From the NCBI GenBank assembly GCA_002782365.1, contig PFHP01000034.1, positions 392-24,697 on the forward strand: a DNA stretch of 24,306 nucleotides. Direction: 5' to 3'. The translations under genes and the position numbers were made by a program. The DNA is from Candidatus Kuenenbacteria bacterium CG_4_8_14_3_um_filter_39_15 (GTDB taxonomy: Bacteria > Patescibacteriota > Patescibacteriia > UBA2196 > GWA2-42-15). Shown here piece by piece: positions 1,437 through 15,399 of this stretch; within the stretch, counting starts at the first letter, position 1; each line of letters opens with the position of its first letter. The notes under the pieces were generated by a model. The model saw only the letters and a program-made list of their open reading frames with translations, did no database searches and was not told the origin of the DNA.

Positions 1437-1544
1437 TCCGCCGATGAGGCGGAAATTCTTAAACTCCGATGTAAAATCGGAGAATGTCGAACCCCGAGGT
1501 AAAGTCGGGGAGCGAGAATGCAAATCCCCGACTTTACGTCGGGG
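1437..1544. repeat. Cluster of four short GC-rich palindromes (REP-like), three sharing a GTAAA loop
   Basis: TCCGCC-gatga-GGCGGA 1437-1453; CTCCGAT-GTAAA-ATCGGAG 1464-1482; CCCCGAG-GTAAA-GTCGGGG 1492-1510; CCCCGAC-TTTAC-GTCGGGG 1526-1544, which is an inverted copy of the previous one with 1 mismatch. Confidence 0.85.
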
Positions 1545-1582: not shown

Positions 1583-1900
1583 ATGCTGATGGTTAGACTT
1601 TCCCGCGTAGGGGAAAAAAAATATGCCACCTATAAAATAGTCATTCAGGAAAAATCCAAAGATCCTTGGGATAAGGCTTTGGAGTATTTAGGTACTTATA
1701 ATCCCCATACCAAAGAATTAAAGGTAAAAAAAGATAGAATTGAATATTGGTTGTCAGTCGGCGCTCAAGTGTCGGCTACGGTAAATAATCTTTTAATTAA
1801 AAATAAGATTATCAAGGGCGAGAAAATGAAAGCGGCCAAACTTAACAAGAAGAAAAATGGCGAGGGGGAAAAAGCGAGGAAAAGAAGAAAGAAGCGATAG
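1583..1900 (+). CDS. rpsP: 30S ribosomal protein S16
   Basis: VRLSRVGEKKYATYKIVI...EYLGTYNP...RIEYWLSVGAQVSATVNNLL, the typical S16 signature. Confidence 0.95.
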   Translation: MLMVRLSRVGEKKYATYKIVIQEKSKDPWDKALEYLGTYNPHTKELKVKKDRIEYWLSVGAQVSATVNNLLIKNKIIKGEKMKAAKLNKKKNGEGEKARKRRKKR

Positions 1901-1956
1901 CCCCTAAGGAAGAAGTTAAGTCTAACCCTGAAGAAATTAAAAAAACATAACAATTT

Positions 1957-1980
1957 AAACCCCACAAATGAGTGGGGTTT
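1957..1980 (+). terminator. Rho-independent terminator after rpsP
   Basis: 9-bp stem AAACCCCAC/GTGGGGTTT with a 6-nt loop, followed by a T-rich tract. Confidence 0.7.
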
Positions 1981-1985
1981 TAAAT

Positions 1986-2014
1986 TTGCTTTTTTCTTTT
2001 AATCTTGGCATAAT
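1986..2014 (+). promoter_or_regulatory. Sigma70-type promoter for valS (extended -10), probably leaderless
   Basis: TTGCTT(1986-1991)-N17-CATAAT(2009-2014) with TG at 2006-2007; ATG at 2022. Confidence 0.6.
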
Positions 2015-2021
2015 GAAAGAT

Positions 2022-4571
2022 ATGGAATTGCCAAAGGCATACATTCCAAAAGAATACGAAGATAAAATTTATAAAAAATGGGAAAATTCCGGATATTGCA
2101 ACCCGGACAATTTAGAAACGCGCGGCCAAGCGCGGTCTTTTACTATTTCCATGCCGCCGCCCAATGCGACCGGTGTGCTGCACATTGGTCATACATTGGG
2201 TATGACGATCCAAGACATTATGACCAGATACCATCGGATGCGGGGGGATAAAACACTGCTCTTGCCCGGCACTGATCACGCGGCTATTGCCACACAAAAT
2301 GTGGTGGAAAAAATGCTAAGAAAAGAAGGGACTTCAAGACATAGATTAGGCAGAAAAAAATTTTTAGAGCTGACAGAAAATTATGTAGAAAAAAATAAGT
2401 CAACCATAAATAACCAAACGAAAAAAATGGGCGCCAGTTGCGATTGGTCAAGAGAGGCTTATACTTTAAGCGACAAACTTTCGCGCGTGGTGTCAATGCA
2501 ATTTAAACAAATGTATGATGATGACTTGATTTATCGGGGGACAAGAATTGTTAATTGGTGCCCGAGATGCTGCTCAACCCTGGCTGATGACGAGGTGGAA
2601 TATAAAGAACAATCAGCGAAATTATATACTTTTAAATATTCAAATGATTTCCCCCTGGCCATTGCCACCACCAGACCGGAAACTAAACTGGGCGATACCG
2701 CGGTGGCAGTTAATCCTCATGACAAAAGATATCAAAAATACATTGGCAAAACATACCAGGTTGATTTTGTGGGAGTGCCTTTAAAACTAAAAATAATTGC
2801 TGAAAATGAGGTCAATCCTGAATTCGGCACGGGAGCAGCCGGGGTAACTCCGGCTCATTCTTTTGCGGATTCACTCATGGCTGAAAAAAATAATTTGGCA
2901 GTTAAAAAAGTAATCGGCCAGGATGGCAAAATTCTAGCCGGGTTTGGTAAATATTCTAATTTGAAAACAAAAGAGGCGCGGGAAAAAATTGTTGAAGAAT
3001 TAGAAAATGACGGGCTTTTAGAAAGCCAGAATGACATTAAAAATAATTTATCAATCTGTTATCGCTGTCACACAGAAATTGAACCGCTCCCCTCTTTGCA
3101 ATGGTTTGTGGCGGTCAATAAAGAATTTACCTTAAAAAATCCTGCTTTAATTAAAAAATACGGCAAAAAAGAAACAACCTTAAAAGAAATCTCGCTTTGG
3201 GCTGTCAAATCAGGCGAGATAAAAATAATCCCTGAATATTTTGCAAAAACATATTTTCATTGGATGGAAAATCTGCGTGACTGGTGTATCTCAAGACAGC
3301 TTTGGTTCGGGCATAGAATACCTGTTTACTATCGTAAACAGGCAATTTCCAATTTCCAATTTCCAATTTCCAAACAAATTCAAAATTCAATCCCCGACCG
3401 GATCGGGGACAAAATTCAAAATTCTATGGACGATATTTATGTCGGGGTAACCCCCAAAAAAGGTGGGGGCTGGGTGCAAGACGAAGATACATTGGACACT
3501 TGGTTCTCGTCTGCGCTGTGGACATGGTCAACACTGCTTGAGAAAAAAAATTTTGAAAAATTTAATGATCTTAAAGAGTGGCTAAAAAATAGTCCGGACA
3601 TAAAAAAATTCCATCCGACCAGCGTGATGGAAACAATGCACGATATTTTGTTTTTTTGGGTAGCGAGAATGATTATAATGACCCTCTATTCTTTAAATGA
3701 AGTGCCTTTTAAAACGGTTTATCTACATGGCATGGTGTGTGATAAACACGGTAAAAAAATGAGTAAATCGCATCCAGAAACATGCATTGAGCCCATTGAA
3801 ATGTCCCAAAAGTACGGCACTGATGCCTTGCGACTTTCTATGGTCTTGGGCAATGCGGCTGGTAACAGCCTGCGGCTGTCTGAACAAAAAATTGCCGGCT
3901 TTAGAAATTTTACTAACAAGCTGTGGAATATCGGCAGATTTATCCAAATGAAAATAAAAGATATTAAAGATATTGGGGATATTAAAGATATTCAATTAGA
4001 AACCTTGGCTGATAAGTGGATAATTAGTAAATTAAACAGCCTAATTAGGGAAGTGGCTGATGATCTTGAAAATTTTAGATTTGGTTTGGCCGGAGAAAAA
4101 TTATATGATTTTACCTGGCACGAATTTGCCGACTGGTATGTAGAAATAGCCAAGATACAAAATAATAAAAATACCTATTTACTAATTACTAATTACTATT
4201 TACTTCTTTTAAAATTATTGCATCCTTTTGCTCCCTTTGTGACTGAAAAAATCTGGGAGTATTTCGGCAGCGGCGATTTATTAATAATTGAAAAATGGCC
4301 TGAAGCGGATGAGAAAAAAATAACTGACCAAGCAGAGCAAGATTTTAAACTGATAAAAGAATTAATCAGCGCCATCCGCTCTTGGCGCAAAGAGAAAGCG
4401 GTTCAACCCAAGGAGATTATAAAAATCAAAGTCGCCGGCAGAGAAGAATTAATTAAAAACCAAAAAGAAGTTATTAATAGATTGGGGCGGGTTGAGACAG
4501 AAGAAGTTAAAAATATAGATAAAGGTGACTTGGAGATTGGGGGAGTAAAAATAAAATTTGGTAATTTGTGA
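2022..4571 (+). CDS. valS: Valyl-tRNA synthetase (start probably 2022 MELPKAY; ORF-track start at 1968 overlaps the terminator and promoter)
   Basis: PPPNATGVLHIGH (HIGH), PGTDHAAIATQ, CP1 editing domain ATTRPET...GTGAAGVTPAH, WCISRQLWFGHRIP, DTLDTWFSS, KMSKS, LLHPFAPFVTE. Confidence 0.98.
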   Translation: MELPKAYIPKEYEDKIYKKWENSGYCNPDNLETRGQARSFTISMPPPNATGVLHIGHTLGMTIQDIMTRYHRMRGDKTLLLPGTDHAAIATQNVVEKMLRKEGTSRHRLGRKKFLELTENYVEKNKSTINNQTKKMGASCDWSREAYTLSDKLSRVVSMQFKQMYDDDLIYRGTRIVNWCPRCCSTLADDEVEYKEQSAKLYTFKYSNDFPLAIATTRPETKLGDTAVAVNPHDKRYQKYIGKTYQVDFVGVPLKLKIIAENEVNPEFGTGAAGVTPAHSFADSLMAEKNNLAVKKVIGQDGKILAGFGKYSNLKTKEAREKIVEELENDGLLESQNDIKNNLSICYRCHTEIEPLPSLQWFVAVNKEFTLKNPALIKKYGKKETTLKEISLWAVKSGEIKIIPEYFAKTYFHWMENLRDWCISRQLWFGHRIPVYYRKQAISNFQFPISKQIQNSIPDRIGDKIQNSMDDIYVGVTPKKGGGWVQDEDTLDTWFSSALWTWSTLLEKKNFEKFNDLKEWLKNSPDIKKFHPTSVMETMHDILFFWVARMIIMTLYSLNEVPFKTVYLHGMVCDKHGKKMSKSHPETCIEPIEMSQKYGTDALRLSMVLGNAAGNSLRLSEQKIAGFRNFTNKLWNIGRFIQMKIKDIKDIGDIKDIQLETLADKWIISKLNSLIREVADDLENFRFGLAGEKLYDFTWHEFADWYVEIAKIQNNKNTYLLITNYYLLLLKLLHPFAPFVTEKIWEYFGSGDLLIIEKWPEADEKKITDQAEQDFKLIKELISAIRSWRKEKAVQPKEIIKIKVAGREELIKNQKEVINRLGRVETEEVKNIDKGDLEIGGVKIKFGNL
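3343..3423 (+). repeat. In-frame 7-mer tandem repeat plus palindrome module inside valS
   Basis: CAATTTC x4 perfect (3343-3370), degenerate CAAAATT units, TCCCCGA-ccgga-TCGGGGA (3391-3409), then CAAAATT x2 (3410-3423). Encodes AISNFQFPISKQIQNSIPDRIGDKIQNS. Confidence 0.92.
3957..3992 (+). repeat. 9-mer tandem repeat inside valS
   Basis: AAAGATATT, AAAGATATT, GGGGATATT, AAAGATATT = KDIKDIGDIKDI. Confidence 0.88.
4179..4206 (+). repeat. 7-mer tandem repeat inside valS
   Basis: TTACTAA, TTACTAA, TTACTAT, TTACTTC = LLITNYYLL. Confidence 0.85.
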
Positions 4572-4588
4572 CGAGTAATGGATAACTA

Positions 4589-4622
4589 TTAAAAAACGAG
4601 CATTTTTATGTCCGTTTTTTAA
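4589..4622. terminator. Bidirectional terminator between convergent valS and ORF 4635-5276
   Basis: TTAAAAAACG-AGCAT-tttt-ATG-TC-CGTTTTTTAA, an imperfect stem with A/T tracts on both sides, between two stop codons. Confidence 0.65.
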
Positions 4623-4634
4623 TGTTTAACTTTA

Positions 4635-5276
4635 TTAATTCATCAAATGGTTTCTTTTTAATTCTTTCAATAATAACTTATCCAACAATAATGTTGGTTG
4701 CCCAGTTTTAGGATGATAAAATATATCTATTTCGTCAGAATAATTTAAATCTAAAATCGCTTTAGATCCTTTCATAATCATACCCATACTAACACCAGGG
4801 GCCCTTCTTCTGTCAGAGTCGCGAGTAGTTTTTATCTGTAAACAGATTTCTTCTGTTGTATCAGGATTTATAAGTAAATCACATCCTTCACGAACGTCTC
4901 GTACTGGATTAGCATGACAGGAATTTATAAGCCTACTTAAGGATGCTTCTGCAGCTACTTCAGCCAGAACACCTACACGAAGATTTTCAGCATCAGTCTG
5001 CCTTTTAAAATAATGCGATTGAACACCAGCCTCTTCTAATTGCCTCCATAAAGAAGCGCACGTTTGTTCTGGGTCATCAGAAAAATTATTAATGTTTTTA
5101 ATAAGGGTACCTAAATTTCCATTGAAAGTGGCCCGCCGCAATGAATTCTCTCCTTGTGTTGTATCAAACTGCCTTTCACCTGCTATTTTTTGCATTTCAT
5201 TTAATACTTTTCCAACCTCGAGATTAAGATCAATCTTTTTTCTAATTTCTCTTTTAACAATAGATAATTCATTCAT
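4635..5276 (-). CDS. Hypothetical protein with a putative PD-(D/E)xK restriction-endonuclease-like fold
   Basis: 213-aa ORF filling the gap between genes. Motif order GVLAEVAAEASL ... DVREGCDLLIN ... ICLQIKT fits the E / D / QxK catalytic pattern (inference). Confidence 0.55.
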   Translation of the reverse strand: MNELSIVKREIRKKIDLNLEVGKVLNEMQKIAGERQFDTTQGENSLRRATFNGNLGTLIKNINNFSDDPEQTCASLWRQLEEAGVQSHYFKRQTDAENLRVGVLAEVAAEASLSRLINSCHANPVRDVREGCDLLINPDTTEEICLQIKTTRDSDRRRAPGVSMGMIMKGSKAILDLNYSDEIDIFYHPKTGQPTLLLDKLLLKELKRNHLMN

Positions 5277-5301
5277 AAAATATAATAATATAAATTAGCA
5301 T

Positions 5302-6825
5302 TTATTCCACTTTTGCCCTGTATTGCAGAGCTTCCGCGACATGTTCTATTTTTATCTGCGTTTCACCGGCTAAGTCGGCAATAGTTCTGGCTAATTTTAT
5401 TATACGATAATACCCTCTGGCTGACAAGTGGAGCTGGCTAACGGCATTTTTGAGAAGTTCTTGAGTGCTAGAATTCAGCTCGCAAATTCTTCTCACCATT
5501 TCACTGGACATCTGGCTGTTAGTAAAAATTTTTTGGGTTTTAAATCTCTCAATCTGCCTGGCACGAGCGGCATTGACGCGCAGACGAATGTCAGCTGATG
5601 ATTCGCCTGTTTTAATACCGGCCAATTTATCCACCTCAACCGCAGGAACTTCAATATGAATATCAATCCTATCCATCATCGGCCCGGAAATCCTATTTTG
5701 ATAATTCAAGACTTGGTTTTGAGTACAAATACAATTTTTATAGGGATCGGCATAGTGGCCGCAAGGACAGGGATTCATCGCCGCCAACAGAATAAATTTG
5801 GCTGGGAATTCAAGCGTGCCTGAAGCGCGGGAGATATGGATAACCCCATCTTCCAATGGCTGACGAAGATTATTTAGAACCGCACGGGGAAATTCCGGGA
5901 ATTCATCCAGAAATAATACACCGTGATGGGCTAATGAAATTTCACCGGGACGCGGCCAGCTGCCGCCGCCGACAAGAGAAATGGCTGAAGCAGTATGATG
6001 AGGCGAACGGAAAGGACGGCTAGTAATCAAAGGCTGGCCGCTGGGCAACAGCCCGGCGACTGAATAAATTTTAGTCACTTCCAACGACTCATCTAAAACC
6101 ATTTCAGGTAAAATTGAAGGCATTGTCCGGGCAAGCAAAGTTTTGCCGCTGCCAGGGGGGCCTGACATGAGAATATTATGACCGCCGGCAGCAGCAATTT
6201 CAAGTGCCCGCTTGACCTGCTCCTGGCCTCTAATGTGGGCCATATTAAACTGGTAAATATTTTCACCCTCAAGACTTACTTTTTCTTTTGGCTGGTATGG
6301 CTCAATTAATAACTCGCCGGTAAGATGTTTGATTAGTTGGCTTAAATTTCCTACCGGATAAATTTCAATAGCTTCTATTAGACCTGCTTCAGCCGCATTC
6401 TCTACCGGCAAAAACAACCTTTTAATGCCTCGTTCACGGACCATCAGGGCAACAGAAAGTGTGCCGTTCACTGCCCGCAAATGGCCATCAAGCGCCAGCT
6501 CACCAATAAAAACTCCTGTTTGATATGAATCAGAAAACTTAAATTGTTTGTAGGCAGAAAGTATAGAAAGGGCGATAGGCAGGTCATACGACGGACCTTG
6601 TTTTTTTAGGTCAGCCGGGGCTAAATTAACATTAATTGTCCCTCGCGGCAGCGCCAAGGCAGAATTTTTAATGGCACTCTTAACGCGATATTTAGATTCC
6701 TGGACGGCATTATCAGGCAGGCCAACAATATTGAATCTGGCCAAGCCCGACATAATATCAGCCTCTACTTCAACCGGCTGACAGTTAAGGCCGATAACCG
6801 CAGCTGAAAGAATTTTTGACGACAT
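5302..6825 (-). CDS. comM: YifB/ComM family Mg-chelatase-like AAA+ ATPase (DNA branch-migration helicase)
   Basis: IVGLPDNAVQES, INVNLAPADLKKQGPSYDLPIAL, GHNILMSGPPGSGKT, RPFRSPHHTAS, PGEISLAHHGVLFLDEFPEF, AAMNPCPCG, SARGYYRIIKLARTIADL. Confidence 0.93.
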   Translation of the reverse strand: MSSKILSAAVIGLNCQPVEVEADIMSGLARFNIVGLPDNAVQESKYRVKSAIKNSALALPRGTINVNLAPADLKKQGPSYDLPIALSILSAYKQFKFSDSYQTGVFIGELALDGHLRAVNGTLSVALMVRERGIKRLFLPVENAAEAGLIEAIEIYPVGNLSQLIKHLTGELLIEPYQPKEKVSLEGENIYQFNMAHIRGQEQVKRALEIAAAGGHNILMSGPPGSGKTLLARTMPSILPEMVLDESLEVTKIYSVAGLLPSGQPLITSRPFRSPHHTASAISLVGGGSWPRPGEISLAHHGVLFLDEFPEFPRAVLNNLRQPLEDGVIHISRASGTLEFPAKFILLAAMNPCPCGHYADPYKNCICTQNQVLNYQNRISGPMMDRIDIHIEVPAVEVDKLAGIKTGESSADIRLRVNAARARQIERFKTQKIFTNSQMSSEMVRRICELNSSTQELLKNAVSQLHLSARGYYRIIKLARTIADLAGETQIKIEHVAEALQYRAKVE

Positions 6826-7246
6826 CTATATAAATTATTATTAATATTCCTCCTACTATCATCATATCAGCTAAATTAAAGACTGGCCAAATGTGAAGAT
6901 TGATGTAGTCAATGACAAAACCAAATTTAATACGGTCAATAATATTACTGCCTGCGCCGAGAATAACAAGCAATGTTAAACTCGCTGCCAGGTGTTTGCC
7001 GCCAGTCCATAATTTTATAAACCAAATAATCAAGGCAAGAATAATTAGGGCAATAATAAAATAGAAAATAATTAAAAAAGATTCTGAGAAATTAATGCCA
7101 AAAGCTATGCCGTCATTTTTCGCATTAGTCAGAAAAAAAGAATCTTTTATAACTTGATGAAAAAATAAATATTTTAATATTCTATCTATCATAAAAAAAA
7201 TCAACCCGAAAACAATAATTATCAATGGTTGATTTTTGTGTGGCAT
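6785..7246 (-). CDS. lspA: Lipoprotein signal peptidase (signal peptidase II)
   Basis: N-GIAFG, GAGSNIIDRIKFGFVIDYI and WPVFNLAD (both catalytic Asp present); hydrophobic segments. Confidence 0.9.
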   Translation of the reverse strand: MPHKNQPLIIIVFGLIFFMIDRILKYLFFHQVIKDSFFLTNAKNDGIAFGINFSESFLIIFYFIIALIILALIIWFIKLWTGGKHLAASLTLLVILGAGSNIIDRIKFGFVIDYINLHIWPVFNLADMMIVGGILIIIYIDVVKNSFSCGYRP

Positions 7247-7264
7247 AAGATGGTGACAAATTAA

Positions 7265-7633
7265 TCAACTTTTACCAGAAAATTTGTTCTTACACTCAAT
7301 ACAGGCGGAAGAGGTGGGACGAATCTCAAGACGATTTTTACTAATATCTTTTTGACAATATTTGCAAACTCCATAAGTGCCGTCTTTAATTCTTTTAAGG
7401 GTATCGTTAATGTCACGTAATTCTTTTTCCAAAGTATTTTTGACTGACACGGCATTGTCAAAACTGGCGACCTCTGACGCATTTTCGCCTGTGTGATCAC
7501 CATACTCTGGAAAAATAGTTTCATTGATTTTACCTTTCTTAAAAGTTAAATCAGCCAACTCTTGTTCAAGACGGTTTTTCTCGCTTTCTAATTTCTCTTT
7601 GATTTTTTTTAGAAAATCCTTATTTAATGCCAT
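7265..7633 (-). CDS. TraR/DksA family C4 zinc-finger protein
   Basis: Coiled-coil N-terminal region, then ALKRI-like TLKRIKDGTYGVCKYC...RLEIRPTSSACIEC. Confidence 0.9.
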   Translation of the reverse strand: MALNKDFLKKIKEKLESEKNRLEQELADLTFKKGKINETIFPEYGDHTGENASEVASFDNAVSVKNTLEKELRDINDTLKRIKDGTYGVCKYCQKDISKNRLEIRPTSSACIECKNKFSGKS

Positions 7634-7739
7634 AAATTTTTAGTTTATTCTACAAAATCAGATAAAGCTTAAAGTTAAAAAAATAAAGATATTGTCACTA
7701 ATTTTAATACTTATACTATAGCAATTTTAGTCAAATAAT

Positions 7740-7783
7740 TCAAGTAAAATGTAAAATTTTACATTCAGTAAAATTTTACTTGA
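7740..7783. repeat. Nested GTAAAAT/ATTTTAC palindromes at the 3' end of glgA
   Basis: 18-bp perfect palindrome 7748-7765, 14-bp perfect palindrome 7767-7780, outer 11-bp inverted repeat 7740-7750/7773-7783. Confidence 0.7.
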
Positions 7784-9176
7784 TTAATTTTTGATATATT
7801 TTTAAATATTTTTTGGCGCTGGTTGCCCAAGAAAAATCTTTTTTCATAGAATTTTTAACCAATTTTAGCCATTTTCTTTGATTATGATAGACAGTTAGCG
7901 CCCGTTTAATAGTTTTAAACATTTCGGAAGAGTCATATTTTTTAAAACTCAAGCCGCTGTCTCTGCTAACTGTATCAACTAAGCCGCCGGTAGAACGGAC
8001 AATGGGAATAGCGCCGTATTTCATGGCAATAAGCTGGCCAAGCCCGCATGGTTCGTATTTTGAGGGCATTAAAAACATGTCGGCGCCGGCATAAATCTGG
8101 TGGGCCAGTTTCAGATCAAATTTTATGTGGGCGCTAAATCTATGTTTGTAGCGCTCATTCATTTGCCTAAAAAAATCCTCATATTCTTTGGCGCCGGTGC
8201 CAAGAATCACAAACTGCAGATTAAGCCGCATAATTTCCGCAAAGGCTTGTTTTAAAAGATCAAAACCTTTTTGCCCGGCAAGACGGGAAACCATGGCAAT
8301 CAGCGGCACATTCACAACGGTTTCAAAACCGCAGATTTTTTGCAGCTGGTTTTTATTTATATATTTGTTCCCGATATCTTCCAAACCGAATTTTTTTATA
8401 ATATCTTTGTCTTTTTTAGGATTCCAATCACTGACATTAAGACCATTCAATATGCCGCAAAGATCTTTTTTTCTTTTTTCCAGCGCGTCAGCCATATCAT
8501 AGCCGTATGCCGGAGTTAATATTTCTCGGGCGTAAGTCGGGCTGACGGTACTCACTAAATCGGCGTCTAAAATTGCCTGCCGCATCAGGTTGACACTGCC
8601 GTTTTTAATCTGATTAAAATCAGCTTCAGTAAAACCAAATTTTTCGAGTACACTTAGTTTGGTTCGTCCGGTGTAGCCAATATTGTGAATAGTAAAAACC
8701 GTTTTAGCGCCTAAGTATTTTTGTGATTTCTGTTTTTTGTATGTTTTTGTGACCAGTGCCGTTTGCCAGTCGTTGCAATGGATTATATCGGGCCGCCAGT
8801 TTAGAGAATTTTCGTCTAAAAGCTCTTTAATCAGCAGGGAAAAGGTGATAAATCTTGCGCGCTCTGATTGATCAAAAATATTTTTGGCTCGGAAAATAGG
8901 CTGGTCCAAAAAATACACGGGCACACGGGATCTTGGTAAATTTGACTGATAGATATTTAATTTATATTTTTTGATCTCGGGATAATCTTCTTTAATTTTA
9001 TAATAATATGGCATAATTACCCTGATATCCACACCTAATTCTTTCAACGCAACAGGTAAACTGCCGGCCACATCACCCAAACCGCCGAGCTTGTAAAACG
9101 GCGCGCATTCATAAGAGGCAAAAAGGATTTTTAGCTGTTTGTTTCTATGACGATTTTTTATTCTGAGAATTGGCAT
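7776..9176 (-). CDS. glgA: Glycogen/starch synthase (GT5), copy 1; start probably ATG 9176
   Basis: KILFASYECAPFYKLGGLGDV (KxGGL ADP-glucose motif), HCNDWQT, TIHNIGY, GILNG, SRLAGQKG, FLMPSKYEPCGLGQLIAMKYG, TGGLVDTV. Confidence 0.93.
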   Translation of the reverse strand: MPILRIKNRHRNKQLKILFASYECAPFYKLGGLGDVAGSLPVALKELGVDIRVIMPYYYKIKEDYPEIKKYKLNIYQSNLPRSRVPVYFLDQPIFRAKNIFDQSERARFITFSLLIKELLDENSLNWRPDIIHCNDWQTALVTKTYKKQKSQKYLGAKTVFTIHNIGYTGRTKLSVLEKFGFTEADFNQIKNGSVNLMRQAILDADLVSTVSPTYAREILTPAYGYDMADALEKRKKDLCGILNGLNVSDWNPKKDKDIIKKFGLEDIGNKYINKNQLQKICGFETVVNVPLIAMVSRLAGQKGFDLLKQAFAEIMRLNLQFVILGTGAKEYEDFFRQMNERYKHRFSAHIKFDLKLAHQIYAGADMFLMPSKYEPCGLGQLIAMKYGAIPIVRSTGGLVDTVSRDSGLSFKKYDSSEMFKTIKRALTVYHNQRKWLKLVKNSMKKDFSWATSAKKYLKIYQKLIK

Positions 9177-9186
9177 AAATACCAAA

Positions 9187-10236
9187 TTATTTATTAGGGA
9201 TTTTACTGGCCAGTTGGACAATTTTTTTTAGGAAAGCAAATTGATTTTGCCAGATTTTTTTCTTTCTTTGTTTGAATTTTCGTTTATATAGTTCACGCTT
9301 TTTAAAAACATTAAGAGCTTTCTTAAGTAAAACCACCGGCCTAAGCTCACTTGGGCTAATAACCAACTCTCTATGGTTGATAAACTTAGCAAAACTCCGG
9401 TTGCGAAGATCATAGGCAAGATTAATCTCTGGTGTGCCGGCACCAAAAGCCATAACACAGGAGTGCAACATCATGCCAATAATTAAATCAAATTTAGAAT
9501 AAACAAATTTTTGTTGTCTTGTTGGGAGATCAACTAGTTGCAGATTTTTAATCTTGAGTTCTTTTCTAATAATTGCTTCGCTGGGGTGATGGTTAAGATA
9601 ATAAATGCCGGCATTGTACTTTTTTTGGAAATAATTGGCAGTGTACTCATATGAATCCAATATCCTATCTTTATATTTGCCAAAACCCAACCAACCGGAA
9701 TAATTAATATTAAAACCAATTTTAATTTTTGGTTTTAGATTGACTTTATTGGTTTTCTTTTCTGATAAAAAAATAGCTGGATCACCAATTACTTTTATTT
9801 TTTTGTTAGCAACACCGACTTTTATTAAAAATTCCTTAGTGTAGTAATCACGAACGCCGATTAATTCGGCTTGTTGACACAAAAAACCAATAGTTTGTTT
9901 TTCCTTCACTTCCAATGCTCTAGCTCCTTCTTCTCGGATATAACCAACCCCAAAAATAACCATGGGTTTTTTAATAGCTTGGATTGTAACGATGTCATAA
10001 GGTAAAAACCAATGATAAAAAATACCACCACCACCGATAACAACTAGGTCGGCTTGATTGATTTTATTAAGCATGGCCGGTGATGCACCCTTTAACAGCT
10101 GGACTGGATAATCACGAATGGTGGCTTGTGGTATTTGTTTCTTTAAAAGCTCTTGGACTGCCTCAATAATAGCTCGATCACCCTTGTTTTTTTTGTCCCA
10201 AACATGAAGATGGGCAATAATTAACTTGGAAATCAT
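9187..10236 (-). CDS. Polysaccharide pyruvyltransferase family protein (WcaK/CsaB-like)
   Basis: NKGDRAI, DLVVIGGGGIF, GVGY, IGVRD, IGDPA, FDLIIGMMLHSCVMA...GTP..NLAYD. Confidence 0.8.
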   Translation of the reverse strand: MISKLIIAHLHVWDKKNKGDRAIIEAVQELLKKQIPQATIRDYPVQLLKGASPAMLNKINQADLVVIGGGGIFYHWFLPYDIVTIQAIKKPMVIFGVGYIREEGARALEVKEKQTIGFLCQQAELIGVRDYYTKEFLIKVGVANKKIKVIGDPAIFLSEKKTNKVNLKPKIKIGFNINYSGWLGFGKYKDRILDSYEYTANYFQKKYNAGIYYLNHHPSEAIIRKELKIKNLQLVDLPTRQQKFVYSKFDLIIGMMLHSCVMAFGAGTPEINLAYDLRNRSFAKFINHRELVISPSELRPVVLLKKALNVFKKRELYKRKFKQRKKKIWQNQFAFLKKIVQLASKIPNK

Positions 10237-10259
10237 AAGGGATATTAAACATTTAGCCT

Positions 10260-11285
10260 TTATTGTTTTATCTGCCGGTACAAATCCTCCGACTGCGTCA
10301 ACAGCCCTTCGGCAAAACGACGGTTAACCTGATCGTCAAAAATCATAAAATAAACGGCGCTCTTCAAGGCTGTCCATGATTTGTAGAGATTAATTTTATT
10401 CTGAATTTCCTGGGGGATTTTTTTGCAGTTGAAATATGTGGAGAGAAAGATATATTCAGTATTTGAATATTCTTCAGGAGTCAGATAATTTCGCGTCATA
10501 AATTCAAACTGCTGTAAAAAGGAAGCAATGTCATAATAAACTGGGGCCAGAGTTACTTCAGAAAAATCAATAATCACTAATTGGCGGTTATTAAAGGTGT
10601 TAATAATTACATTTTCTGGGTGAAAATCACCATGAGAAAAAACAGCTTGATCTTTGATAATTGTCTGATAAAGATTTTGAAGCTTGCTAAACTGTATTAG
10701 AACTTCATGAGCCAGGTTAGTGTCTTTATTATAAGCACGGTTAACCACATTAGTCGGATCTAGAAAGACGGGCGAAAATGCATGCTTTTTGAGTTTGATA
10801 TCTTTGGTCGGTTTAATATTGTGGAGTTTTAATAAACCGAGGGCAATTGTTTGAATAGTTGACAGATCAAAATAGCCGTTTTTGATATGTTCCAGCAAAT
10901 TTTCCCCGGGCACGCCGAGGTAGAAAGCGGCCATCAGTTCATCAGAATACCAAAGCGGCCTGGGAACGATAACGTCACCCTGATGGAAACCTTGCTCATA
11001 TACTAATTTCAGAACTTGGTACATTTTTCTGCGCGCCTGGCCGGAAAAACTGACACAAAAGATTCTGCAGCGCCGACGGACTCCTGTTTCTACTTTATAA
11101 GTTAAGTCATTTTGAATGACAAAATGAAAAAAGTTATCATCACAATGGCTCTTGATAAAATGGCAATTAAGGCGCAAGACTTTAACACCCCGCTGATCAA
11201 TCTCTTTAAGCCGTGCGTTAAAAAGGCCGATGAGATATGCTTGATTGCTAATTAAACTGGGAATTTGTCGTTCTTGTTCAGTCAT
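10260..11285 (-). CDS. APH/choline-kinase-fold phosphotransferase
   Basis: VIVPRPL, Brenner motif HGDFHPENVII, IIDFSE, YDIASF. Start overlaps the GH57 stop codon (ATGA-type coupling). Confidence 0.8.
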   Translation of the reverse strand: MTEQERQIPSLISNQAYLIGLFNARLKEIDQRGVKVLRLNCHFIKSHCDDNFFHFVIQNDLTYKVETGVRRRCRIFCVSFSGQARRKMYQVLKLVYEQGFHQGDVIVPRPLWYSDELMAAFYLGVPGENLLEHIKNGYFDLSTIQTIALGLLKLHNIKPTKDIKLKKHAFSPVFLDPTNVVNRAYNKDTNLAHEVLIQFSKLQNLYQTIIKDQAVFSHGDFHPENVIINTFNNRQLVIIDFSEVTLAPVYYDIASFLQQFEFMTRNYLTPEEYSNTEYIFLSTYFNCKKIPQEIQNKINLYKSWTALKSAVYFMIFDDQVNRRFAEGLLTQSEDLYRQIKQ

Positions 11286-12451
11286 TTGGTTTTTCTAAAT
11301 TTACCCCAATGTTTGGTCCAGATTGCTTGATGAATTGCCAGAAACATTTTTTCAGCCATGATTTTCTTTTGGGGATTAATTTTACTAAGTGAGCGGACGG
11401 AGCGCAGCAGCTCTAAAGCGCCTTTTTCAACTTCTTCAGGATTCCAGGCTGCATAATTAAATAATTTAAAATCCTTGTCAGAAGCCCACCAAAAAGTACA
11501 GCTGGCTAAGCCTTTTTCCAGATGAAGCCGCGAAGCGAAGTGATTGGGGTCGCGTTTTCCCTGGTAATTTAATTGTAAAGCAAAATTGGCCAATTGCCAA
11601 AGTTGTTTATGAATTTTGTTTTTGGAATGCTGCCAGAGACTATAAGGAACACGATGGGTTAATTCGGCTGGTGTTGATTCCCACGATGAAGGCATGACAT
11701 TGATTTTTTCCTCTTTTCTCTTCTGAGCCAAAAATTCCGTAATAGTGAGAGTTGTCAGGTTTTCGTTTTTTAAAATATTATCCAAAATATTTTCCTGATC
11801 TTTATATTTATGGCCATAAAGTTCACCGTCAGTAGCAGTAATTACTATCTCCGGGCGTTTTTCTTGTTTCAATATTTTTTCTATTTCCTCTGGCACAAAC
11901 GTCTTGGATAGTTTTCTGTTGCGGAAAACAACATTGAGACCGATATTCTTCAGCTTATACTTTTTAGTATAATCCAGACAGCCACTATTAATTTTACCAT
12001 CAAATGATATTTCGTCTAAAATAATCCAGCGAAAACCAGCGCGTTTAATCGCCCGGGCGGTTTCATCTCCATAGGCCATTTCGGGCAGAAAAAAACCTTG
12101 CGGCTGGTAGAGTTTGCCAAAATAACGTTGGTTGATATCATAATTAATCTGAATCTGGCGCTCAACTTCTTTAATGGGCAGCAGCGGCAAAAGCGGATGA
12201 AAAGCCGCACTGCCAGTCAGCTCAATTTGCCCGCGGGCGACCAAAAATTTAAGATCATCAATTAGTTTTGTATAACCAATCTGATTAAGATATTCCGTTA
12301 AACAGGCAGTGACGTTTAAAGTAATTTTATATTGAGGATTTCGTAACAAAACTCTGACAATATTAAAATAGGCCTCCTTACTAATCCGGATTAAAAGGTC
12401 TTTTTCTAAGGTAGGAGGTTGGTAGATGTGCAAAAAATTTAACCAAAGCAT
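11282..12451 (-). CDS. Glycoside hydrolase family 57 (alpha-glucan-active); start probably ATG 12451 MLWLNFLHIYQP
   Basis: LHIYQP (CSR1), IELTGSAAFHPLLPLL, GFFLPEMAY (nucleophile Glu), ATDGELYGH (acid/base Asp). Start lies 5 nt after the upstream glgA stop. Confidence 0.88.
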   Translation of the reverse strand: MLWLNFLHIYQPPTLEKDLLIRISKEAYFNIVRVLLRNPQYKITLNVTACLTEYLNQIGYTKLIDDLKFLVARGQIELTGSAAFHPLLPLLPIKEVERQIQINYDINQRYFGKLYQPQGFFLPEMAYGDETARAIKRAGFRWIILDEISFDGKINSGCLDYTKKYKLKNIGLNVVFRNRKLSKTFVPEEIEKILKQEKRPEIVITATDGELYGHKYKDQENILDNILKNENLTTLTITEFLAQKRKEEKINVMPSSWESTPAELTHRVPYSLWQHSKNKIHKQLWQLANFALQLNYQGKRDPNHFASRLHLEKGLASCTFWWASDKDFKLFNYAAWNPEEVEKGALELLRSVRSLSKINPQKKIMAEKMFLAIHQAIWTKHWGKFRKTK

Positions 12452-12455
12452 AAAA

Positions 12456-13940
12456 TCAGGTCTTTTTGTCTTTATAGACCGCAATTGCTTTTCTGAATAA
12501 TCTGACATAAAGCGCCGCCGGCAAATTCCAAGAAAAAGATATTTGCATGCCACGGATAATTAGCCGCCGCCAGATTTTTTTATTTTTGTAATATTCCAAA
12601 GCTCTGACGATAGCACCGTAAAGCGACAAGGGACTATAAGTCAAAAAAGTAAAGCCATTACCGTTCAAATTTTTAAAATCAAAATTGGTAATGGTATCTT
12701 TCAAACCGCCAATGGAACGAACAATTGGAATGCAACCATAACGCAAGGCTTTCATTTGATTAATGCCGCAAGGTTCTGAAGTGGAAGGCAGTAAAAACAT
12801 GTCACCGCCGGCATAAAGGCTGGTTTCATATTTCGGCCCGTCGCTGGCCCAGGAAACCCAGGCAAGCTTGGTAGGATAGCTTTTCATAATCTTTTTAATC
12901 TCACTGATGTAATTTTTATCGCCATCACCCATAATAATCATCTGGATATTCAGATGCAGCAGGATATCAAGCGCTTTTAAAATTAATTCAAATCCTTTCT
13001 GGTGGGTGATCCGTGATGACATGACAATCAGAGGAATTTCTTTATCTTGAGTCAGGCCATATCTTTTTTGGATAAATAATTTGTCTGTTTCACGCCGGCC
13101 AATTTGTCCGAATGAATAATTTTCCTTAAGGCCCGGGTCAGTTTGAGGATTATAGTCATCATGGTCAATGCCATTAATAATGCCGTATAGGCGATCCTGG
13201 CGGTTGCGCAGTAAAATGTGCAGCCCCTGGCCTTTTTCTTGTTCCAAAATCTCTTGGGCATAAGTTTCTGAAACGGTGTTAATAATATCGGCATTCAAAA
13301 TGGCGTGTTTGACAAAATTTATATTCTCCAGTTCTGGATCATTAAAAAACGGCAATTTTGACTTGCCATCATCTCTTTCTTCCGACGGCACTTCCCACCA
13401 GGCATGACCGAGCTGGAAGATCAGGTTATGAATGGTAAAGACGGTGGCAGCCCTGGAAAGGATTGACGAATCTTTAAAATCACGATTAATGAAATAGGGA
13501 ATCAGGCCGGTATGCCAATCATGACATTGAATAATGTCAACGGGGAATTTTAGTCTGGTCAGCAGTTTTAAAGCGGCCAAATCAAACAGTAAAAACCTGG
13601 CGTTTTCATGGCTGGAGCCGTATATTTCTTTGCGCCGCGAAAAATATTTTTCATTTTCTATAAAATAGATAGACACGCCCTTAGTCAGCTCGCCCAACCA
13701 GTAATTGACGTCCAGGCTATTTTTATCATCAATTTTAACTTTTATTTTTTCTTGATACAATTTCAAATGATATTTTTTCTTATCAATTATTTTGCCATAA
13801 AGTGGCGTAATGCAAATTATTTTATGGCTTAAACGGTTTAAAGCGCGCGGCAAAGAACCGGCGACATCGGCCAGCCCGCCAGTTTTAGAAAACGGAGCAA
13901 TTTCTGAAGAGATGGAGACGATATTTAAATTTTTTGCCAT
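12456..13940 (-). CDS. glgA: Glycogen/starch synthase (GT5), copy 2
   Basis: SEIAPFSKTGGLADV, CHDWHT, FTIHNL, GIINGID, SRITHQKG, FLLPSTSEPCGINQMKALRYG, GGLKDTI. Confidence 0.93.
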   Translation of the reverse strand: MAKNLNIVSISSEIAPFSKTGGLADVAGSLPRALNRLSHKIICITPLYGKIIDKKKYHLKLYQEKIKVKIDDKNSLDVNYWLGELTKGVSIYFIENEKYFSRRKEIYGSSHENARFLLFDLAALKLLTRLKFPVDIIQCHDWHTGLIPYFINRDFKDSSILSRAATVFTIHNLIFQLGHAWWEVPSEERDDGKSKLPFFNDPELENINFVKHAILNADIINTVSETYAQEILEQEKGQGLHILLRNRQDRLYGIINGIDHDDYNPQTDPGLKENYSFGQIGRRETDKLFIQKRYGLTQDKEIPLIVMSSRITHQKGFELILKALDILLHLNIQMIIMGDGDKNYISEIKKIMKSYPTKLAWVSWASDGPKYETSLYAGGDMFLLPSTSEPCGINQMKALRYGCIPIVRSIGGLKDTITNFDFKNLNGNGFTFLTYSPLSLYGAIVRALEYYKNKKIWRRLIIRGMQISFSWNLPAALYVRLFRKAIAVYKDKKT

Positions 13941-13943
13941 AGA

Positions 13944-14411
13944 TTATTGACTATGCGCACAAGTAATGGCCACGGCCAGAGCATCGGCTGCATCGTCGGG
14001 TTTGATGGTTTCACTTAAGTTTAAAATCACTTTAACCATCTGCTGGATTTGATTTTTATCCGCCCGGCCATAACCAGTGAGCGCTTGTTTAATCTGCAGT
14101 GGGGTGTATTCATAAACGGGTAATTTACTTTGCATGGCAGTAGCCAGGATTACTCCGCGGGCTTCGCCGACCTTCAAAGCAGTTTTGACATTCTTACAAA
14201 AAAACAACTCCTCAACCGCCAGGATATCCGGCTTATATTTCTCTATAATTTTTTTAAGCCCTCGGGCAATCGTGGCTAACCTTTCTGGATGCTTATTTTT
14301 TGGGCTAGTCAAGATACACCCCGAAGCAATTAACTGTAAGGTTTTATTTTTATCTTCTAAAATTCCATAGCCGACGATTGCCACGCCAGGATCAATGCCG
14401 AGAATTTTCAT
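13944..14411 (-). CDS. ruvC: Holliday junction resolvase RuvC
   Basis: MKILGIDPG, AVEELFF..NVKTALKVGEARG, YEYTPLQIKQALTGYGRADKNQIQQMV, PDDAADALAVA. Confidence 0.97.
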   Translation of the reverse strand: MKILGIDPGVAIVGYGILEDKNKTLQLIASGCILTSPKNKHPERLATIARGLKKIIEKYKPDILAVEELFFCKNVKTALKVGEARGVILATAMQSKLPVYEYTPLQIKQALTGYGRADKNQIQQMVKVILNLSETIKPDDAADALAVAITCAHSQ

Positions 14412-14419
14412 ACACAAAT

Positions 14420-14543
14420 GAATTTACCCTGAGGAGCTTGCGACGAGGGGGGTCCTGTTGTAAGTAGCTCGGAGTATTAATAAATAGTATTACTGTTTTT
14501 CACGGGATTCTTCAGCCGCTCCGTGCGGCTTCAGAATAAATTC
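14420..14543. repeat. ~124-bp composite palindromic element between yebC and ruvC
   Basis: Termini GAATTTACCCTGA / TCAGAATAAATTC are imperfect inverted repeats. Inner arms GAGGGGGGTCCTG / CACGGGATTCTTC can pair. Sub-hairpin AGCCGC-tccgt-GCGGCT at 14514-14530. Confidence 0.65.
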
Positions 14544-14552
14544 TTTTTTTCC

Positions 14553-15308
14553 TTACGCTAAATTAGTGTAATAATCGCTCACCTCATCAAGTTCATCAAG
14601 GCTGCCTAAAATTTTGGCCACCTTGGCCAATGTCTCATTATCAATGTCCTTGGGGTCTTTAGCGACCATCTCAAGACCAGCCGAATTTATTTTAACTCCT
14701 GAATTTTCTAATTTTTCTTTAACTGCTTTTAGTTCTTCGGGTCTGGTGTAAATAGTAAAGCCGTCTTCATCTTTAATATAATCCTCTGCTCCAGAGTCAA
14801 TAATTTTCATTTCTAAATCTCCCTGTTCCCTGTCTGCCCCGCCTTGTTTGACGAGGCCGGGGTTAATTGTTCCCTGTACATTGATTCTTATTACTCCTTT
14901 ATTCTCAAATTGCCAAGAGACACTATGCAGATCAACAAACTGGCCGCCATTTTTAGTGATGGCAGTTTTAATATCAGCCAGCGCCCTGTTTTTATTATCC
15001 GACAGGCATTTAATAATGACAGCAACTTGGCCGGGTAACAGTGCTCCATAAGTTAGATCTTCAATCACCGCTCCTTTTAATTCACCCGTGCCACGTTTGA
15101 TGGCGCGCTCAATATTATCTTTGGGCATATTGACAGCCTTAGCGCGCTCAATGGCTAGACGTAACTTAAAATTAGCCTCGGGGTCTGTCCCGCCCTCTTT
15201 AACAGCCACGGTGATGGTATTGCCAAGTTTAGTAAAAATATTGCCGCGCTGGGCATCTTTTGATTCTTTAGTTCTTTTAATGGTGGCCCATTTAGAATGT
15301 CCGGACAT
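14553..15308 (-). CDS. yebC: YebC/PmpR family regulator; start ATG 15308 MSGHSKW
   Basis: MSGHSKWATIKRTK...D..RGNIFTKL, GGTDPEANFKLRLAI..AKAVNMPKDNIERAIKRG, DNKNR, FENKG, GAED. Confidence 0.95.
   Translation of the reverse strand: MSGHSKWATIKRTKESKDAQRGNIFTKLGNTITVAVKEGGTDPEANFKLRLAIERAKAVNMPKDNIERAIKRGTGELKGAVIEDLTYGALLPGQVAVIIKCLSDNKNRALADIKTAITKNGGQFVDLHSVSWQFENKGVIRINVQGTINPGLVKQGGADREQGDLEMKIIDSGAEDYIKDEDGFTIYTRPEELKAVKEKLENSGVKINSAGLEMVAKDPKDIDNETLAKVAKILGSLDELDEVSDYYTNLA
14820..14877 (-). repeat. In-frame 7-mer tandem repeat plus palindrome module inside yebC
   Basis: On the + strand: TCCCTGT x2 (14820-14833), hairpin CCCCGCCTTGT-ttg-ACGAGGCCGGGG (14837-14862), TAATTGT, TCCCTGT (14871-14877). 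Encodes QGTINPGLVKQGGADREQG. Confidence 0.88.
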
Positions 15309-15370
15309 AGTTTGGTGGTTAAATAATGACCTGCACCTTTTATTAATAAAATTAATATTGCTTACAATTA

Positions 15371-15399
15371 AGCCTATCATTTTGAAGCTAAAAAATCAA
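15371..15399 (-). promoter_or_regulatory. Sigma70-type promoter for the yebC operon
   Basis: Minus strand TTGATT-N17-TAGGCT with extended TG, about 60 nt upstream of ATG 15308. Confidence 0.5.

Follow-up and report, generated by a model that had tools for sequence, protein, structure and literature searches.

The window analysed here, a stretch of 24,306 nucleotides (nt) from contig PFHP01000034.1 of Candidatus Kuenenbacteria bacterium CG_4_8_14_3_um_filter_39_15, carries two housekeeping genes on opposite strands, valS (valyl-tRNA synthetase, ValRS) and yebC, each containing an in-frame insert of tandem 7-nt units with a GC-rich hairpin embedded in it. These tracts probably belong, as members without a gene, to a dispersed system of heptamer-array repeats that shares its unit families with the arms of PF05635 cassettes. 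Four observations carry this reading, namely a period-7 excess across the genome, the gain, loss and replacement of blocks between the two sister species, the presence of one nearly identical module in three genes, and repeat units common to the tracts and the cassette arms.

The source genome (G000; 0.66 Mb, 39% GC, 72 contigs, 85% complete) was compared with a sister species of the same genus (G001), a Candidatus Kuenenbacteria metagenome-assembled genome from groundwater, with 31 relatives, and with a wider set of 301 genomes in 238 genera of the class, while ValRS was also compared with 72 broad relatives. Tandem arrays were called with Tandem Repeats Finder (TRF) at a score of at least 40, and perfect arrays of at least three copies were counted separately against third-order Markov shuffles. 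The context of tracts was taken from a simple open reading frame (ORF) caller, and domain placement from Pfam envelopes. Contigs are numbered C within each genome.

In-frame inserts in valS and yebC

Orthologues of valS were found in 31 of 31 relatives. The ValRS of the sister species has a minimal loop, PAWYKNNEIYVG, at the insert site, and the pairwise alignment leaves a gap of 30 residues; the source genome therefore holds 30 extra codons. Its loop measures 75 residues, as compared with 45, or 52-53 with a zinc knuckle, in the 72 broad relatives, the canonical length being 45 amino acids (aa). In YebC, the alignment sets NVQGTINPGLVKQGGADREQGD in the source genome against NRQQDE in the sister species, with a gap of 16 residues. 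The probable start of yebC is the methionine of MSGHSKW, the motif with which the sister orthologue begins. Both ORFs stay open across their inserts, and neither the valS nor the yebC insert contains an ORF of its own. Contigs from four independent aquifer or groundwater metagenome runs tile both valS junctions without an indel, and contigs of independent runs likewise span the yebC insert; the inserts are therefore not assembly artefacts. In all, 17 aquifer runs contain the locus. Thus, the inserts proposed for these two genes by an earlier, sequence-only reading of the window are real, absent from the sister species, and present in independent assemblies. The components of both inserts are listed in Table 1.

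The valS insert is not confined to valS. An 80-nt copy of its module lies in pgk, 98.75% identical and read in a different frame (NFQFPIFNFQTNSKFNPRPDRGQ vs SNFQFPISKQIQNSIPDRIGD), and a third copy of 48 nt (94%) lies in a miaB-like gene. A module that is 99% identical in two genes while read in different frames, together with the miaB-like copy, therefore points to recent dispersed repeats at the DNA level rather than to local slippage or selected peptides. The (CAATTTC) array of the module also recurs on contigs C32, C28, C25 and C64. The yebC module has a diverged second copy, whole, at C22 ~5890-5945, and the 14-mer alternation of ACAGGGA and ACAATTA is also found at C27:16772 and C54:3711; arrays of these two units occupy five loci in the source genome and none in the sister species.

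Table 1 Features of the window discussed in the text (TRF, Tandem Repeats Finder).
Feature	Position	Strand	Basis and remarks
valS (valyl-tRNA synthetase)	1968-4571	+	ORF and translation; contains a pair of heptamer tracts plus a single 9-mer tract
Perfect 9-bp hairpin CCTGTTTAC-TATC-GTAAACAGG	3321-3342	+	Abuts left edge of valS insert
valS insert, ~90 nt (30 codons)	3339-3428	+	Absent from sister species; edges placed only to within a few nt
(CAATTTC) x4.4, perfect heptamer array	3343-3373	+	TRF score 62; translated AISNFQFPIS
Degenerate heptamers, AAATTCA type, running into hairpin	3374-3390	+	TRF 3376-3390; within the 80-nt module common to pgk
19-nt GC-rich palindrome TCCCCGACCGGATCGGGGA inside tract	3391-3409	+	Three identical copies in genome, every one in an ORF
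(CAAAATT) x2, tract resumes	3410-3424	+	TRF
(AAAGATATT) x4, 9-nt tandem tract in valS, peptide KDIKDIGDIKDI	3957-3992	+	TRF; member of dispersed 9-mer family
(CTAATTA) x4.3, second valS heptamer tract	4175-4204	+	TRF; stop in consensus unit, removed here by substitutions
yebC ORF (YebC/TACO1 family)	14553-15380; 14553-15308 from probable start	-	Translation
(ACAGGGA) x2 on coding strand (TCCCTGT x2 forward)	14820-14833	-	Sequence reading
yebC insert, 48 nt (16 codons)	14834-14881	-	Absent from sister species; edges ambiguous within ACAG repeats
CCCCG..CGGGG hairpin, 26 nt, within yebC tract	14837-14862	-	Motif search
ACAGGGA + ACAATTA units, coding strand (forward TTAATTG+TTCCCTGT)	14863-14877	-	Other side of hairpin
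Two free CCCCGA..TCGGGG-type hairpins	1492-1510, 1526-1544	+	Downstream of 16S gene

Period-7 arrays across the genome and the class

The source genome holds 86 TRF arrays of period 7, as compared with 9 of period 8, 19 of period 9 and none of period 6. Perfect arrays show the same pattern (29 at period 7; 3, 1 and 4 at periods 6, 8 and 9; none in the shuffles), and period 7 is the sole over-represented tandem period. The claim that the period is kept while the units vary was borne out, and simple slippage acting on all periods is excluded as the sole cause. An expected second excess at period 9 did not appear, with only the four perfect arrays mentioned above, although a 9-nt variant does exist as a dispersed family (see below).

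Merging the arrays gave 96 tracts, of which 37 are intergenic, 30 lie over gene ends and 29 lie in ORFs. With coding sequence making up 85% of the genome, tracts are thus depleted from coding DNA yet numerous there. At least 13 fall within Pfam envelopes, the hosts including SecA, TGT, PGK, a MiaB-like protein, PheT, Fmt, TruB and glycosyltransferases besides ValRS and YebC. Three heptamers make seven codons, so an in-frame array is read in each of the three phases of its unit. The units of 21 of the 29 in-ORF tracts are stop-free on the coding strand, and the remainder, including the second valS tract, are saved by substitutions; of 66 intergenic and gene-end tracts, 50 have units with stops on each of the two strands. 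The open frames speak for translation of the inserts and against their removal from the mRNA. A bias of in-gene tracts towards frame-keeping, stop-free phases had been put forward as a check and is seen, but selection acting on random insertions suffices to leave it.

The density of arrays differs widely among relatives. Per 100 kb it is 13.0 in the source genome, 9.6 in the sister species, 13.4 in G007 and 9.3 in G020, as compared with 0.0 in G026 and 0.2 in G015; the latter two have a similar or lower GC content, yet are practically free of heptamer arrays. One unit is widespread: exact (CAATTTC)3 was found in 29 of the class's 301 genomes (27 of 238 genera), in many cases at more than one place and on both strands, while a reversed control gave one match. 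In metagenome runs X2, X3, X8 and X9, dozens of unrelated contigs per run start or end in (CAATTTC)n (window 3343-3378), with up to 26 loose ends at one position and a word depth ~50-300 times that of the flanks. Many organisms in the aquifer communities sampled therefore carry this heptamer in abundance.

Turnover between sister species

Comparison of the two Kuenenbacteria species shows tracts appearing, disappearing and being exchanged at conserved sites. The sister species is empty at valS, pgk and yebC, which provides the pairs of filled and empty alleles that the sequence-only reading had called for. Between genes, whole palindromic AATTTTA arrays of 100-150 nt are present in one species and absent from the other, and inverted, gene-less AATTTTA arrays exist elsewhere in the source genome. 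Within genes, a single site may hold unrelated units in the two species, as seen in SecA, an ELP3-like gene, a GT2 gene and PheT. The site of the second valS tract is occupied in the sister species by unrelated sequence that includes a CCCCCCTACGGGGG hairpin (window 4130-4210 vs G001 C14). Whole unit families also differ between the two. For example, AGTCGTC and TTGGTAG, both arms of cassettes in the sister species, occur there at four and six loci and at none in the source genome, while AAATTAC occurs at four loci in the source genome and none in its sister. The sister valS also carries, elsewhere in the gene, a species-specific heptamer-coded insert of nine residues (NNKQLTTND).

Among 374 orthologue pairs of the two species (median 88% identity), 73 internal indels of at least 5 residues were found. 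Four of these are strictly 7-periodic, as compared with 0.1 expected, and in ~14 the best period is 7. A GC-rich hairpin is present in 23, as compared with 5.4 expected.

Units shared with PF05635 cassettes

PF05635 (the S23p, 23S intervening sequence (IVS) or Avd-like four-helix-bundle family) scores over the cut-off in 25 of the 31 relatives. Inverted heptamer arrays bracket each of the 16 PF05635 genes examined, namely all four in the sister species and 12 of 12 loci in a further 12 genomes, and the upstream array extends into the start codon. The arm units GTATAAT, GAATTAT, AATTACT/AGTAACT, AAGCAAT, GAAATTG/AATTTTC and AGTCGTC are the orphan units of the source and sister genomes, and the in-gene orphan tracts of the sister species share the units of a cassette resident in that genome. 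At one locus, the site of a PF05635 cassette on C9 of the sister species corresponds to a solo 27-nt tract on C44 of the source genome. High array density goes with cassettes in the sister species (4) and in G007 (15), and is near nil in G026 and G015, which are without PF05635. The association of 7-mer tracts with four-helix-bundle genes put forward in the sequence-only reading thus holds for the relatives, although no such cassette was found in the source genome itself, at its 85% completeness. At another locus (C38:5398-5702), the source genome has ~305 nt of unrelated sequence where the sister species has a PF05635 cassette; this segment ends in a cluster of CCCCGA..TCGGGG-type hairpins resembling those after the 16S gene.

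A model for the tracts and its alternatives

Taken as DNA-level elements, the tracts would be copied between loci as blocks of ~50-150 nt and would draw on the restricted repertoire of 7-nt unit families from which the inverted arms of PF05635 cassettes are built. Most copies would land between genes or at gene ends, while those in ORFs would persist only if they are in frame, stop-free in all three phases and located in tolerant surface loops. Such a filter would be the reason why the inserts look as if written into housekeeping genes, where they would be translated as extra loop peptides. The GC-rich hairpins would be mini-palindromes, a second class of element independent of the tracts, with insertions within arrays as well as straight into ORFs, and slippage may afterwards alter copy number and homogenise the units within an array. 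By inference, copying could proceed by cassette insertion followed by loss of the gene and one arm, or by template switching or ectopic conversion between arrays; the PF05635 protein may take part, if it has any role at all.

Several observations weigh against this model or against a strict dependence of the tracts on cassettes. The only PF05635 match in the source genome (85% complete) is the Avd of a diversity-generating retroelement (DGR), which has no heptamer arms, despite the many young, perfect arrays in this genome. Likewise, G020 has arrays, all of them degenerate, but no PF05635 gene was detected in this incomplete genome. In valS and yebC the tracts run as direct arrays along a single strand, unlike the inverted arms of a cassette, and AATTTTC, an arm unit of a sister-species cassette, is yet commoner in the source genome. 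No consistent target-site duplication or fixed end motif was found at the filled and empty pairs of the two species. A search for a Y1 transposase (PF01797) gave no match in the source genome, at its 85% completeness, and one weak match in the sister species. Finally, the co-occurrence of arrays and PF05635 across kin is not independent evidence. Cassettes hidden by runs of N or by contig ends were considered and rejected, as the N runs are short and unrelated to arrays and the contig ends are not 7-periodic.

In a stronger form of the model, the heptamer arrays would serve as arms of a widespread, undescribed system of cassettes that carry PF05635, GxxExxY/PDDEXK_3 or further cargo and whose full or gene-less copies are inserted in frame into essential genes by a dedicated activity with a 7-nt register. 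This is possible but rather doubtful; the fixed register put forward in the sequence-only reading stands as a description, and no enzyme with such a register was identified. If the stronger form were true, the cassette system would be a main engine of loop insertion and domain gain in the proteins of ultra-small bacteria of the candidate phyla radiation (CPR), and the contents of the ValRS loop (heptamers, ASCH-like and His-phosphatase domains) and the LepA and RecG ORFs with PDDEXK_3 would be products of one process.

Alternatively, the tracts could arise in place through slippage during replication, given a replicase with an inherent 7-nt bias, with selection keeping those in frame and no mobile element involved. 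Copy number indeed differs at orthologous arrays (ATTAATT with 3.6 vs ~12 copies; TTGCTTA with two extra units), and units are homogenised within arrays, as in PheT, where AAATTAC x4 in the source genome has been replaced in concert by AATTTCC x4 in the sister species or the reverse. PMC4692102 also quotes a proposed polymerase-footprint explanation of heptamer excess. Yet slippage is unlikely to be the source of the tracts, since the 80-nt composite module with its non-repetitive hairpin is shared at 99% identity by two genes, unit families recur over 27 genera and match cassette arms, unrelated units replace each other at single sites, and G026 and G015 do without heptamer arrays at a similar or lower GC content.

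The tracts could also be footprints or attachment sites of full cassettes that were inserted and then excised, with no tract ever copied alone. The solo tract on C44, exactly at the site of a sister-species cassette, would fit this, as would the ValRS loop, with heptamers in five lineages but entire domains in others, the domain of G009 following CCAATTT x3, and the GxxExxY/PDDEXK_3 cassettes lying in frame within LepA-like and RecG ORFs of relatives. However, the copies in valS, pgk and miaB are one identical composite module without a cassette remnant, no cassette was found at these three sites in any relative examined, and the C44 difference may be a loss or a gain. We consider excision footprints an improbable origin. 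Selection of the inserts for function, as heptad peptides or regulatory mRNA hairpins and not as neutral or selfish DNA, is very improbable: the hairpin at the left valS junction keeps its pairing through two compensatory changes between the source genome and G009, and the stems of a 68-nt element (see below) co-vary, but one module is read in two frames to give different peptides, identical arrays also lie between genes, the sister species lacks the inserts in essential enzymes, and the content of a site is swapped freely between species.

The ValRS loop in relatives

The contents of the ValRS loop were also inspected in other relatives. An ASCH-like domain of ~150 aa is present in G009 and G015, and a histidine-phosphatase-like domain of ~190 aa in G004 and G018, which belong to two different families; both domain names were read from motifs. 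In G028, G029, G010 and G016 the loop holds short heptamer-derived peptides.

GC-rich hairpins and the 68-nt element

The motif CCCCG-N(4-30)-CGGGG occurs five times in the window, as compared with 0.1 expected, and the hairpins said to stand free after the 16S gene were found there (Table 1). A tract-hairpin-tract architecture was not upheld as a general rule. Perfect GC-rich stems of at least 5, 6 or 7 bp were compared with TRF arrays, and near tracts of the source genome there were 11 stems of at least 5 bp (19 expected) and 8 of at least 6 bp (5 expected). The association is therefore rejected as a rule for lack of enrichment, and the valS arrangement is one composite module in three copies; in the sister species, stems of at least 6 bp are associated with tracts ~2.5-fold. 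Hairpins do come and go within tracts, as a 21-nt palindrome inside the CAAAAGT tract of TGT is present in the sister species and absent from the source genome, and a gene on C52 carries another palindrome, TCCCGCGGCCGCGGGA, in the AAATTCAA|CAAAATTC context that valS also has. These cases show the hairpins to be separate nested insertions.

A structured, dispersed element of ~68 nt was also found, consisting of TCCGCC...GGCGGA and TCACCCGCAGGGTGA stems, the second with compensatory changes, followed by a T-run, so that it has a terminator-like look. It is present in at least 11 copies in the source genome (including C11:6884, C38:4170, C37:6551, C67:478 and C28:8503) and at least 7 in the sister species, nearly always flanked by AATTTT-type heptamers. 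Where it is nested in AATTTTA arrays, one species has the element and the other lacks it.

The perfect 9-bp hairpin that abuts the valS insert is of another kind, as the conserved sequence coding for PVYY recurs in inverted form as its 3' arm. The equivalent site reads CCGGTTTTC-TATA-GAAAACCGG in G009, with the pairing kept by the two compensatory changes, and CCTGTTTAT-TATC-GTAAACAGG in G029, with the pairing kept by wobble. This hairpin could be a snap-back signature of insertion or a selected RNA or DNA structure. No such flanking 9-bp hairpin was found at the pgk insert site. A flank-derived hairpin as a general signature was rejected, as 17 of 192 tract edges carry hairpins of 7 bp or more, as compared with ~7 expected, and these are mostly AT-rich parts of the arrays.

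The 9-mer family, GxxExxY genes and other candidate genes

The 9-nt tract of valS belongs to the AAAGATATT family, which occupies ~10 loci and makes up ~10 of the 19 period-9 arrays of the source genome. Its loci include C63:6649-6760, C4:44-97, C37:2783 and 4255, and C23:2795-2863; a gene contains an array of 12 copies (KILKIL...KDIKDI), and at one locus two arrays lie side by side in inverted orientation. The suggested link of 9-mer tracts to GxxExxY genes failed, as no GxxExxY (TIGR04256) gene was found in the source or sister genome, and in eight relatives these genes are flanked by other inverted repeats, not AAAGATATT.

In relatives, a GxxExxY/PDDEXK_3 nuclease-like domain with inverted-repeat flanks lies in frame inside a LepA-like GTPase, splitting its GTP_EFTU domain, and another separates the DEAD and Helicase_C domains of RecG. 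The host ORFs, LepA-like at L272 (G021:C63) and RecG at L271 (G027:C8), are open over 711 and 841 aa, respectively. These insertions resemble those of homing endonucleases, without an intein.

The only reverse transcriptase in the source genome is that of the DGR, which lies at C11:~1845-3255 (L021 422-1833), where a 349-aa reverse transcriptase adjoins the 116-aa Avd; it is conserved in the sister species. BLAST of the modules showed no similarity to the DGR, with no dedicated comparison made between its template or variable repeats and the tracts.

At the 5' end of the window, the 16S rRNA match (254-1424) spans model positions 1-1533 in just 1171 nt. Model positions ~44-398 are missing and the 5' end is poorly aligned, so the 16S gene seems interrupted or truncated upstream. 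An ORF at 2-250, open at this 5' end, immediately precedes it.

Relation to known repeats and implications

The inserts are best filed as a combination of in-frame selfish repeats, tandem heptamers with nested hairpins, and IVS/PF05635 cassettes, each of which has a counterpart in other bacteria. The first resembles the Rickettsia palindromic elements (RPE) of Ogata et al. (2000), selfish elements that reportedly lie in frame in essential protein genes at tolerant surface positions. As with RPE, a dispersed repeat lies in frame within conserved ORFs and is missing from orthologues (valS, pgk, yebC). While RPE are palindromes of ~100-150 bp in few families, the inserts described here, in a different phylum, are tandem 7-nt arrays of many unit families with separate hairpins of 17-26 nt. 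Cyanobacterial heptanucleotide repeats (short tandemly repeated repetitive sequences, STRR) are said to contain small dispersed repeats (SDR), small hairpin elements nested in the tandem heptamers (Elhai et al. 2008). Both systems share a lineage-specific excess of tandem heptamers, the sole over-represented period, and small hairpins inserted into arrays as separate events. Unlike STRR/SDR, which are mainly intergenic and of other sequence and are not known to show either feature, the present repeats have in-frame copies within ORFs and a link to PF05635.

The third counterpart is the 23S IVS of Coxiella burnetii, in which GACAGAT is repeated 2-3 times with a copy number that varies between strains, adjoining an S23p (PF05635) four-helix-bundle ORF (PMC4990558). 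Similarly, the PF05635 genes of the present lineage are bracketed by heptamer arrays with the units of the orphan tracts. Unlike the IVS, the tracts have no ORF or inverted partner, and they lie in protein-coding and not rRNA genes and are translated rather than excised by RNase III. GGGAATC-type heptamers of Xanthomonas and Nostoc are also over-represented at period 7 alone, vary in length and sequence between close relatives at conserved sites and form some inverted pairs, and the bacterial heptamer excess was noted there and left unexplained (PMC4692102). These repeats are G-rich, quadruplex-forming and intergenic, whereas the tracts here are AT-rich and many lie within genes. Lastly, the repetitive extragenic palindromes REP and REPIN, mobilised by REP-associated tyrosine transposases (RAYT), are short dispersed palindromes with nested structures that are present or absent between close relatives (PMC3116915). 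Presence in one close relative with absence from another, as well as nesting, recurs here, but no Y1/RAYT was found in the source genome and the tandem 7-nt arrays have no REPIN counterpart. A search of the literature found no paper tying CPR bacteria to heptamer repeats. What is new here is the gene-less, in-ORF form of heptamer repeats and its turnover.

The findings link orphan heptamer repeats, recorded since 1990-2007 without an explanation, to PF05635, a large family whose function is unknown. Despite the very small genomes of CPR bacteria, unexplained insertions are found in many of their conserved proteins, and two kinds of tiny DNA repeats account for a sizeable share of the protein length differences between the two Kuenenbacteria species. 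Such repeats are a concrete DNA-level source of innovation in protein loops, and the filled and empty alleles in natural aquifer populations offer a direct test bed for their mobility.

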